Shown here: one piece after another, positions 53,820-54,818 of the stretch
Numbering within the stretch: position 1 is the stretch's first letter
Layout: each line of letters begins with the position of its first letter
DNA from: an uncultured Planctomycetaceae bacterium
Lineage (GTDB): Bacteria > Planctomycetota > UBA8742 > UBA2392
Direction: 5' to 3'
Length of the DNA: 64,000 nucleotides
NCBI GenBank assembly: GCA_964652605.1
Contig: CAZZBH010000001.1
Location: 12,670 to 76,669 of the forward strand
The notes under the pieces: generated by a model
Told to the model about the DNA's origin: nothing
The model's input: the letters and a program-made list of their open reading frames with translations, nothing else
The model's database searches: none
Translations under genes and position numbers: made by a program

Positions 53820-54818
53820 ATGGCCACCTCGCCGCTCAACATCACCAACCTTACGCAGGATGCATTGGCAAAGTGGTTGGTGGAAGACTTCTATTTCAAG
53901 ATTCAGATCGCCCGCGTGTTTCCCATGATGGCCATCGAGGGCGGGATGATCAGCTATGCACGCACTCCCGCGCTTCAGGCCATGGCCGAGATCAACAGCA
54001 TGGCGACAATCCTCGGCGACGGAACACAGGGCATCGCCGTCCAGACCGCCAGCCCGCAGGCAATGAATGTGACGTTCTCGTTGGGTACACTCGCCACTCG
54101 CTACCAGTTGGACTACTCGGGCCAGGACCGCTACAAGTCCCCCAACAACATCGACGCTACGCTTGCCGCGCTCGCGATCCGGCGGCTTACCTACATGCAG
54201 TGTCGCAAGCTGGACCTCGACACCACCGGCAATCCGGGGGATTACCCGTCGCTTTACGACATGTGCGCCGCCTCCAACCTCGTTACCAGCAGCAACGGCA
54301 CTGCGTTGCAGCGCCTTGAGGAACTTCAGCAGGCCTACAGCCTTGTCACCGCGAACAACGGGCGCCCCAACGCCATCATGTGCAACAGCCGGGCGTTGCG
54401 CTGGATCATCGCGGCGTACCACGGCGCGAGTATTTTGCCGGGGTTTGTCGAGTGTGAATGGGGCGATCCGCTCAAGGGCACGGTTCGCGCGCCGCAGTTG
54501 GCCATCAACGGCACACCGATCTACATCAACGAGATGGTTGCATCAAACGTCGAACAGCTCACGCGAATCTATTTCATGGTGTTGGGCGACTCCGGCGAGG
54601 CCGGCCCCACGCGCGGAATCACCGGCATTGTGCCCGCGCCACTAAAAGACACATTGTTCGTGCGTCGCGAATCGTCAGAGCCTGCTTCGGTGACCTCGAC
54701 GTCGCTGATCAACGTTGACTACACGTTTCCGGTGGCAACAGCAATGGGATCGTCCGGCGCGCTCGCTATACTGGAAGGCGTGGACGTAACCGAGTTCCCG
54801 GTGCCGGCCGGAAGCTGA
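53820..54818 (+). CDS. HK97-fold major-capsid / encapsulin-like shell protein (orphan)
   Basis: 332 aa. Segment order and local patterns (NAIMCNSRALRWIIAAY; INGTPIYINEMV; IYFMVLGDSG..TRGITGIVP; VDYTFPVATAMGSSGALAILEGV) parallel the P-domain/A-domain core of T7 gp10, lambda gpE and T. maritima encapsulin as recalled from memory. Not verified by search. Confidence 0.5.
   Translation: MATSPLNITNLTQDALAKWLVEDFYFKIQIARVFPMMAIEGGMISYARTPALQAMAEINSMATILGDGTQGIAVQTASPQAMNVTFSLGTLATRYQLDYSGQDRYKSPNNIDATLAALAIRRLTYMQCRKLDLDTTGNPGDYPSLYDMCAASNLVTSSNGTALQRLEELQQAYSLVTANNGRPNAIMCNSRALRWIIAAYHGASILPGFVECEWGDPLKGTVRAPQLAINGTPIYINEMVASNVEQLTRIYFMVLGDSGEAGPTRGITGIVPAPLKDTLFVRRESSEPASVTSTSLINVDYTFPVATAMGSSGALAILEGVDVTEFPVPAGS

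Follow-up and report, generated by a model that had tools for sequence, protein, structure and literature searches.

A resident HK97-fold capsid gene of Planctomycetota chromosomes and its undescribed partner cassette

We analysed a stretch of 64,000 nucleotides (nt) from an uncultured Planctomycetaceae bacterium (assembly GCA_964652605.1, contig CAZZBH010000001.1), hereafter the window, in which an open reading frame (ORF) at 53820-54818 encodes a capsid-like protein of 332 amino acids (aa). It is a resident chromosomal gene of Planctomycetota without DNA-packaging or tail machinery, and the first, translationally coupled gene of a four-gene operon. The kind of protein is known, namely a domesticated HK97 capsid that is sister to Bt075 of Bacillus thuringiensis and structurally nearest to the Family 2 encapsulins; what is new is the partner cassette, which is undescribed. 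On balance, with confidence a little above even, we read the product as a domesticated shell or lattice protein that recruits the proteins encoded downstream. Loci used for comparison are cited by L numbers and individual relatives by P numbers.

Fold of the capsid-like protein

53820-54818, forward strand: HK97-fold capsid/encapsulin-like shell protein, 332 aa, ATG start, uninterrupted, first gene of the cassette
54369-54389, forward strand: NAIMCNS block of this protein (aa 184-190), in which I186 and M187 are invariant and which holds Cys188

A first-pass annotation of the window had described the ORF as free of frameshifts, had quoted five sequence blocks from its product and had assigned it an HK97 fold. 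The reading frame was indeed unbroken from its ATG start. All five blocks were present in the translation and fell in the stretches that were most conserved when 34 full-length homologs were aligned (identities down to 34%), so we regard them as real conserved blocks and not as chance resemblances. This alignment contained 16 invariant and 29 nearly invariant positions, the invariant residues including L11, P35, G41, I186, M187, G231, N237, G256, G266, P272, and P304.

The AlphaFold2 (AF2) model based on the family alignment had a predicted local distance difference test (pLDDT) score of 81.6 and a predicted template modelling (pTM) score of 0.78. When the PDB was searched with this model using Foldseek, 341 matches were obtained at E ≤ 0.001, and the top 50 were all capsids or encapsulins. 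The first seven were Family 2A/2B encapsulin shells (8t6r, 8wol, 6x8m, 9bje, 8won, 9bix, and 9bhu; E 1e-17 to 2e-14), with a root-mean-square deviation (rmsd) of 3.9 Å for 8t6r (E 9.9e-18) and 3.4 Å for 6x8m, SrpI (E 3.6e-17). HK97-type phage capsids ranked after them (E 1.5e-11, rmsd 6-8 Å), and matches to phage major capsid proteins (MCPs) reached 5e-15 in the viral structure library BFVD. HK97 gp5, many phage MCPs, and encapsulins could all be superposed on the model, with alignments of about 300 columns. This ranking, with phage MCPs at about 1e-11, bears out the annotation's placement of the protein closest to Family-2-like encapsulins or small phage MCPs, and the search returned no confident match to a non-capsid fold.

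The order of structural elements in the model fitted HK97: about seven disordered N-terminal residues were followed by N-helices (residues 8-32), strands (36-46), a long excursion (47-98), and a spine helix (111-130). This N-terminus is compatible with Family 2A. A cNMP domain would not fit into the short E-loop region of the model (47-98), which speaks against membership in Family 2B. The ORF is thus established as a genuine HK97-fold capsid protein.

Phage ancestry and distribution of the family

The capsid protein had no match in Pfam (E ≤ 0.1) or PHROGs and a faint one in NCBIfam, to MCP_gp7_epsi_15 (epsilon15-type MCP, E 0.036); PADLOC gave no match for the capsid gene and its three partner genes. 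The annotation had pointed to sequence likenesses to T7 gp10 and to the T. maritima encapsulin, and neither held. The best BLASTP match to T7 gp10A (NC_001604) covered 14 residues at E 2.9, and we rejected this resemblance at the sequence level. The PDB chains, among which we take the T7 capsid and T. maritima encapsulin entries to be included, returned no capsid or encapsulin at E ≤ 10 with either the single capsid sequence or the family profile. The likeness to both proteins is at the level of the fold only.

We found 38 homologs of the capsid protein, and those with a source label all came from Planctomycetes. A profile search of 1.84 billion representative proteins returned 241 relatives. 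The distant ones were true phage head proteins, matching phrog_212 (down to 8e-58), SU10_MCP, Phage_capsid, and GP7, with a weak match to SrpI-like. When the profiles of the window family and of the phage MCPs were compared by hhalign, the probability was 100% (E 1.6e-39, 296 columns), and the alignment was collinear from residue 1 to the C-terminus. Because of the Foldseek matches, the profile search, and the profile-profile comparison, we consider the HK97 fold and the descent of the family from phage MCPs of the phrog_212/SU10 type established.

The family is unnamed, lies outside the four encapsulin families and occurs almost wholly in Planctomycetota. In the genome scan, 24 of 25 loci belonged to metagenome-assembled genomes (MAGs) of Planctomycetota, and the remaining one to a 5-kb contig labelled Fimbriimonadaceae. 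Many MAGs carried two or three capsid paralogs that were mutually 30-38% identical. On a metagenome contig with the intermediate relative P0099 (L054), two capsid-like genes of 328 and 332 aa stood in tandem (538-1533 and 1554-2552), an arrangement that recalls the two-component Family 2B shells. In the literature searched, we found no paper analysing the Planctomycetota capsid loci.

The downstream cassette

The capsid gene had been called stand-alone in the first-pass annotation. This is right with regard to the virion module, none of which is present (see below), but not with regard to its neighbours, as the gene heads a conserved cassette of four genes on the same strand with intergenic gaps of 10, 34, and 40 nt (about 4.3 kb in all). 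The features of the three partner genes were as follows:

54829-55089, forward strand: small partner protein, 86 aa, with an N-terminal GCGCG motif at nt 54850-54861
54931-54972, forward strand: basic helix EDRREDIRRRIEAF of the small protein
55045-55086, forward strand: C-terminal VRIIGPNGETLKLF motif of the small protein
55080-55118, forward strand: GC-rich hairpin (GCGCGC...GCGCGC) in the gap between the small and big genes
55124-57355, forward strand: modular orphan protein, 743 aa, 18 Cys, putative cargo or effector
55310-55339, forward strand: ELTGIQPDNV island of the big protein
55538-55633, forward strand: acidic linker of the big protein
55634-55642, forward strand: CIC of the big protein
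56396-56434, forward strand: DPNCCC island of the big protein
57188-57220, forward strand: HELGHNAGILH, a metzincin-type zinc motif of the big protein
57396-58079, forward strand: lipoprotein-like protein, 227 aa when counted from GTG; translation probably starts at ATG 57411
57537-57548, forward strand: LIAC lipobox of the 227-aa protein

The small gene started 10 nt past the capsid stop codon, with GGAG 6 nt upstream, and its product began with MQNGKMGCGCG. Only 26 CGCG tetrapeptides were present in the 876,310 aa of the six-frame translation of all loci. About 15 of them lay on the capsid strand, 31-388 nt past the capsid stop (2.4 kb in L005), and the capsid-linked ones sat 2-14 residues after an ATG. 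The small-protein family consisted of three parts: CGCG, the basic helix, and a C-terminal RVxxPxGETxxP motif. The same N-terminal CGCG motif was attached directly to larger proteins in L002, L016/L028, and L021, and L004 had a variant of it, CGGGCGGG. A profile search of 5.8 billion proteins yielded just 12 small CGCG proteins, every one of which, where checked, followed a capsid-like gene; L057 and L058 are among the examples. The small protein is a candidate adaptor, anchor, or scaffold on the strength of these sequence features.

Two complete modules stood in divergent orientation in L057 (4531-5502, reverse strand, and 6897-7868, forward strand), each with capsid, small protein, further proteins, and a leucine-rich-repeat (LRR) protein. 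They were separated by a fragment of an IS1595 transposase, and the reverse transcriptase of a group II intron was encoded close by.

Cys188 is the most conserved cysteine of the capsid protein and the sole cysteine in the L001 and L005 capsids. A cysteine occupied this position in eight of 12 loci with a CGCG partner versus one of 15 loci without, a difference confounded by phylogeny. Since it tracks the phylogenetic split between the two groups, we rejected this covariation as independent evidence of a link with the partner. The hairpin between the small and big genes had a predicted RNA folding energy of -18.9 kcal/mol (z -2.16 versus shuffles) and had no T-run; judged from its predicted fold, it may attenuate expression, so that less of the big protein would be made than of the capsid and small proteins.

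The 743-aa protein had no homolog among 5.8e9 proteins. It shared short islands, in collinear order, with the corresponding partners in L050, L004, and L058: ELTGIxxDNV near residue 65, an acidic/proline-rich linker, CxC, and PxNCCC near residue 430. Nothing was shared among the big proteins past the CCC island. Global MAFFT alignment of eight of them was uninformative, pairwise Smith-Waterman comparisons were mostly at noise level, and the single-sequence AF2 model of the window protein (pLDDT 32.5) was unusable. The clearest pattern came from L008, where two big proteins at one locus were about 90-95% identical over approximately residues 190-470 and then became abruptly unrelated just before CxC. 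The big protein therefore has a conserved N-terminal part and swappable C-termini, which is clear at this one locus. The same locus carried the small-plus-big cassette duplicated in tandem (11266-14625 and 17528-20335) around a tail-fibre-like gene, with an abrupt, recombination-like breakpoint after 'APGPIYLDQV[IV]PPGPP'.

The C-termini carried different motifs. The window protein ended with HELGHNAGILH, an exact HExxHxxGxxH metzincin motif, and its variable C-terminus is, to judge from this motif, probably a metzincin-type zinc protease. Its leading PDB matches were adamalysins, aligned on their catalytic helix, although none of them was significant by itself. L008 had AHELAH, resembling eCIS_core below threshold, and L031 a GHSLG elbow. 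No PDB sequence match was obtained for the C-terminal domains of the L031, L058, and L050 partners.

The 227-aa product of the third partner-gene position combined a hydrophobic segment (aa 35-53) with the lipobox, and had no match in Pfam, PHROG, NCBIfam, or PADLOC. In nine of nine loci, the gene next in line behind the big one encoded a signal, lipobox, or transmembrane (TM) segment, although the proteins were otherwise unrelated; in L002 and L009 it was a MORN_2 repeat protein. The 227-aa protein is a candidate immunity protein or membrane partner. Relatives of the window locus, but not the window itself, also had tail-fibre-like proteins (PHROG tail fibre, down to 3.6e-14), among which no conserved N-terminal adaptor was seen, and a distant paralog group had an added LRR protein.

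Genomic surroundings and the absence of virus genes

Pfam, PHROG, and NCBIfam searches around the window gene and its relatives, together with precomputed Pfam assignments in eight loci, revealed no gene for a terminase, portal, protease, scaffold, connector, or tail protein. As a positive control, the L053 locus of the distant relative P0137 showed a textbook phage gene set, with terminase, portal (DUF4055), scaffold, MCP, tail terminator, and tape measure. The L053 terminase, portal, and scaffold found no match by phmmer in the 723 kb of loci plus the window; the L053 MCP detected almost every member of the capsid family. The earlier description of the gene as retained without the rest of a virion module is thus upheld. 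No family member was detected by tblastn in 50,697 phage genomes (INPHARED), and 2.9 million IMG/VR viral contigs contained no confirmed relative. The window module had no integrase or replication genes, no att-like flanking direct repeats and no nearby tRNA, the only tRNA being 52 kb away. A promoter/terminator scan performed no better than on shuffled sequence.

The GC content at third codon positions (GC3) was 0.79 for the capsid gene versus 0.79-0.83 for neighbouring host genes, and it was lower in the rest of the cassette: 0.69 for the small gene and 0.61 for both the big and third genes. These values suggest that the capsid gene is a long-standing resident and that the cassette behind it was exchanged more recently.

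In L004, a 543-aa protein with a weak match to Terminase_6N (1184-2815, reverse strand) is encoded 8 kb upstream of the capsid-like gene on the opposite strand. We rejected it as a shared packaging gene, as it had no counterpart at other loci.

These data bear on whether the module could belong to a virus or mobile element that has escaped recognition, for instance a satellite or a tailless mini-virus. Its replication and packaging genes would then have diverged beyond detection or be located elsewhere in the genome. Descent from phage MCPs, the tail-fibre-like genes of relatives, the several copies per genome, the low-GC3 cassette, the IS1595 fragment and group II intron reverse transcriptase near the L057 modules, and the weak Terminase_6N match 8 kb from the L004 copy would all fit, and there is a precedent in the tailless, portal-less HK97 mini-viruses that have been proposed (10.1101/2025.06.18.659913). 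We nevertheless consider an element of this kind rather improbable. The module spans only about 4.3 kb between housekeeping genes at differing sites; integrase, replication, terminase, and portal genes and att repeats are absent; IMG/VR held no confirmed relative and INPHARED none; the capsid gene has host-like GC3; and no other locus has a counterpart of the terminase-like gene of L004, which is encoded on the opposite strand to the capsid-like gene.

Upstream of the capsid gene were mutL, a tatD-like gene, an MMPL transporter, and an epimerase, and downstream of the cassette an Aas-like acyltransferase/AMP-ligase followed by an UppS-like gene; the tatD-like and UppS-like names are our own reading of the translations. 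The lipid-gene neighbourhood noted in the first-pass annotation is therefore real (MMPL, epimerase, Aas-like), but it is not conserved among relatives. These were flanked by differing housekeeping genes, among them an Mrp antiporter, an ABC transporter, radical SAM and beta-lactamase family genes, a methyltransferase, a dynamin-like GTPase, deoxyhypusine synthase, and FolD.

The Aas-like gene (PlsC-type acyltransferase plus AMP-binding; 58428-60629, forward strand) directly follows the window module, and a 55%-identical ortholog in another MAG (L017, 13860-16034, reverse strand) directly follows the module of a different, 38%-identical capsid paralog. This recurrence could be fortuitous, could mark a hot spot of insertion, or could mean that the CGCG cysteines are connected with acyl transfer. 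We judged a link to the lipid gene unproven, since there was one ortholog only and the other 'cluster 5' members were generic AMP-binding enzymes. Further downstream, on the reverse strand (61995-63953), the window encodes a repetitive 652-aa protein rich in Gly, Thr, and Ser that ends with a hydrophobic segment and RRRRA; this C-terminus looks like a surface-protein sorting signal.

Relationship to Bt075 and possible roles of the assembly

Among 72,556 plasmids, tblastn detected one gene only, carried by pBtoxis and by 14 further plasmids of B. thuringiensis/wiedmannii. Its product is homologous along the full length, the alignment covering 93% of the query at 29% identity (E 5e-18). The 286-aa plasmid coding sequence is Bt075, because the published Bt075 primers map onto it. 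The window family profile scored 177 bits on Bt075 (E 1.8e-56) and the phage profile 135 bits. Bt075 branched between the phage MCP group and the Planctomycetota clade in a neighbour-joining tree, and its nearest neighbours by distance were all capsid family members. It is closer to the window family than phage MCPs are, and is encoded without a phage module.

Rudd et al. (2023) described Bt075 as derived from a phage MCP, with a Planctomycetes protein as its best BLAST relative (PMC10669011). Its fusion to green fluorescent protein (Bt075-GFP) localises to the parasporal body holding the Cry/Cyt toxins in B. thuringiensis subsp. israelensis, specifically to the fibrous matrix with a hexagonal pattern (PMC10669011). 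On pBtoxis (NC_010076; L061, 7895-9831), a recombinase and a Tn3 transposase stand ahead of Bt075, and directly behind it come genes for a nucleotidyltransferase of the AbiEii/AbiGii toxin family and for a PIN-domain protein. On this plasmid, too, a gene of capsid origin may travel with toxin-like genes.

HK97-fold hexamers can tile planes, and by analogy with what has been proposed for Bt075, the window protein might be part of a non-closed lattice, forming or decorating sheets that organise or immobilise partners, with no icosahedral container. This would agree with Bt075 being the closest characterised homolog (profile E 1.8e-56) and with its reported localisation to a hexagonally patterned matrix (PMC10669011). 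However, structurally the protein comes closest to closed T=1 shells of Family 2, and the Bt075 locus shares no partner genes with the window, so that we hold a lattice in place of a container to be very unlikely.

A role in capsid-based antagonism seems to us unlikely. Here, an HK97 shell would package polymorphic toxins via the CGCG adaptor, as a head-derived counterpart of tailocins and extracellular contractile injection systems (eCIS). The C-termini would be interchangeable warheads (zinc protease, lipase), the released particle would be aimed at competitors by a fibre or LRR protein, and the third gene would provide immunity; in its mechanism, such a system would be akin to the B. thuringiensis toxin organelle with which Bt075 is associated. 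The conserved N-terminal half with abruptly swapped C-termini in the two L008 paralogs, the orphan status and low GC3 of the cassette, the motifs HExxHxxGxxH in the window, AHELAH like eCIS_core in L008, and the GHSLG elbow in L031 point this way. So do the signal or TM segment of the following gene (nine of nine loci), the MORN_2 repeats in L002 and L009, which are typical of YwqK-type immunity proteins, and the tail-fibre-like and LRR proteins of relatives. The association of Bt075 with a toxin organelle is a further point in favour (PMC10669011). On the other side, no toxin or immunity domain scored above a curated threshold in the cassette and PADLOC had no match; no lysis or export genes were seen and no known trafficking domain; the window has no fibre or LRR gene; and modularity is clear at one locus only. 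The toxin and immunity assignments of the cassette proteins are tentative, being drawn from motifs.

Proposed function

Our preferred reading remains that of a domesticated shell or lattice protein recruiting its downstream partners. The capsid protein would plausibly assemble into an encapsulin-like shell, or possibly into a capsid-type lattice as suggested for Bt075. The assembly would recruit the small CGCG protein, acting as adaptor, anchor, or scaffold, and the big protein would be recruited via its conserved N-terminal island and disordered linker, in parallel with Family 2 cargo loading through long terminal domains. The variable C-terminal module would be an enzyme, here plausibly a metzincin-type zinc protease, and the product of the lipoprotein-like gene would be a cognate membrane or periplasmic partner, possibly an immunity protein.

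Several observations weigh against this reading. The Pfam family SrpI-like (PF19307) had no match to the capsid family at E ≤ 0.1 and was touched only by the distant phage-type relatives P0137 and P0148. Homology among the big proteins consists of short islands with z-scores of only 2.8-4.7, except for L050-L009 (z 14) and the L008 pair. The metzincin assignment lies below threshold, with an adamalysin catalytic-helix alignment at E 0.3-1.4 and Reprolysin_3/5 and M66 below the cut-off. Known encapsulin cargos are conserved enzymes, whereas the partner here is an extremely fast-evolving orphan, and we know of no encapsulin operon with the tail-fibre-like, LRR, and MORN proteins of the related loci. 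The third gene product lies outside the cytoplasm and the capsid protein lacks a signal peptide, so that it is not obvious where a cytoplasmic shell would act. Finally, the capsid ORF is split in nine of 45 loci, for which either pseudogenes or errors in MAG assembly may account:

L010, L019, L022, L027, L029, L035, L037, L041, and L043: split capsid-like gene, two profile-matching pieces in different frames

The nine family loci split by frameshifts, together with the orphan status of the partners, would be expected of a decaying prophage remnant without present function. We find a remnant extremely unlikely. Dozens of MAGs have full-length ORFs, with 16 positions invariant and 29 nearly so even though identities fall to 34%; diverged paralogs keep the same operon architecture and the CGCG partner; and codon usage is host-like. 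Random decay is also unlikely because the same set of virus genes is missing at all loci.

Through this locus a whole family of capsid-derived genes comes into view that is chromosomal and falls outside the four families of encapsulins, and its N-terminal CGCG protein is a new and very specific partner signature. The presumed cargo behaves like a fast-swapping effector cassette, unlike the conserved metabolic enzymes of encapsulins. If the shell loads its partners, the known scope of capsid domestication would widen, a new loading tag would become available for engineered nanocompartments, and the role of Bt075 would become testable by comparison.

Comparison with known systems

The best structural matches were Family 2A encapsulins (SrpI of S. 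elongatus, 6X8M; A. baumannii, 8T6R; M. smegmatis Mmp1, 8WOL), with E-values of 1e-17 to 4e-17, TM scores of 0.65-0.76, and rmsd of 3.4-3.9 Å over about 305-315 columns. Similar size, a phage-type N-terminus, the absence of virus genes, and a neighbour protein with a long, partly disordered N-terminal region are common to Family 2A and the window; the cargo-loading domains of Family 2 comprise about 50-300 residues (PMC11664910). The window partner differs from Family 2 cargo in being downstream, orphan, and modular, and the phylum differs as well. No cysteine desulfurase, terpene cyclase, polyprenyl transferase, or xylulose kinase was found in the window or related loci, and the CGCG protein and the fibre, LRR, and MORN genes have no counterpart in Family 2 operons. 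For Planctomycetota, the census of encapsulin families reports only Family 1 cytochrome-fusion systems (PMC8346489).

Phage MCPs (PHROG 212/SU10_MCP, Phage_capsid) share ancestry with the window family. The genes of the PHROG 212 type sit in complete head-tail modules, e.g., in L053, and those of the window family never do. Polymorphic toxin-immunity loci, tailocins, and eCIS resemble the cassette in their swapped C-termini, variable membrane or periplasmic gene downstream, and atypical GC content, with fibre or LRR binding proteins as a likeness seen in relatives only. No toxin, immunity, or trafficking domain of the cassette proteins exceeded a curated threshold. Unlike in tailocins and eCIS, the phage-derived part is a head protein and not a tail, and any delivery is hypothetical.

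Bt075, like the window capsid gene, has no phage module around it and no Pfam family, and it is linked to protein toxins. It differs in being plasmid-borne, in Bacillota, 286 aa long, and flanked by transposases and AbiEii/PIN genes; its locus is without a CGCG protein, big modular protein, or lipoprotein gene, and its partners are Cry/Cyt crystals in an organelle of about 1 µm. Bt075 is the closest characterised relative of the window capsid and belongs to the same exapted clade.

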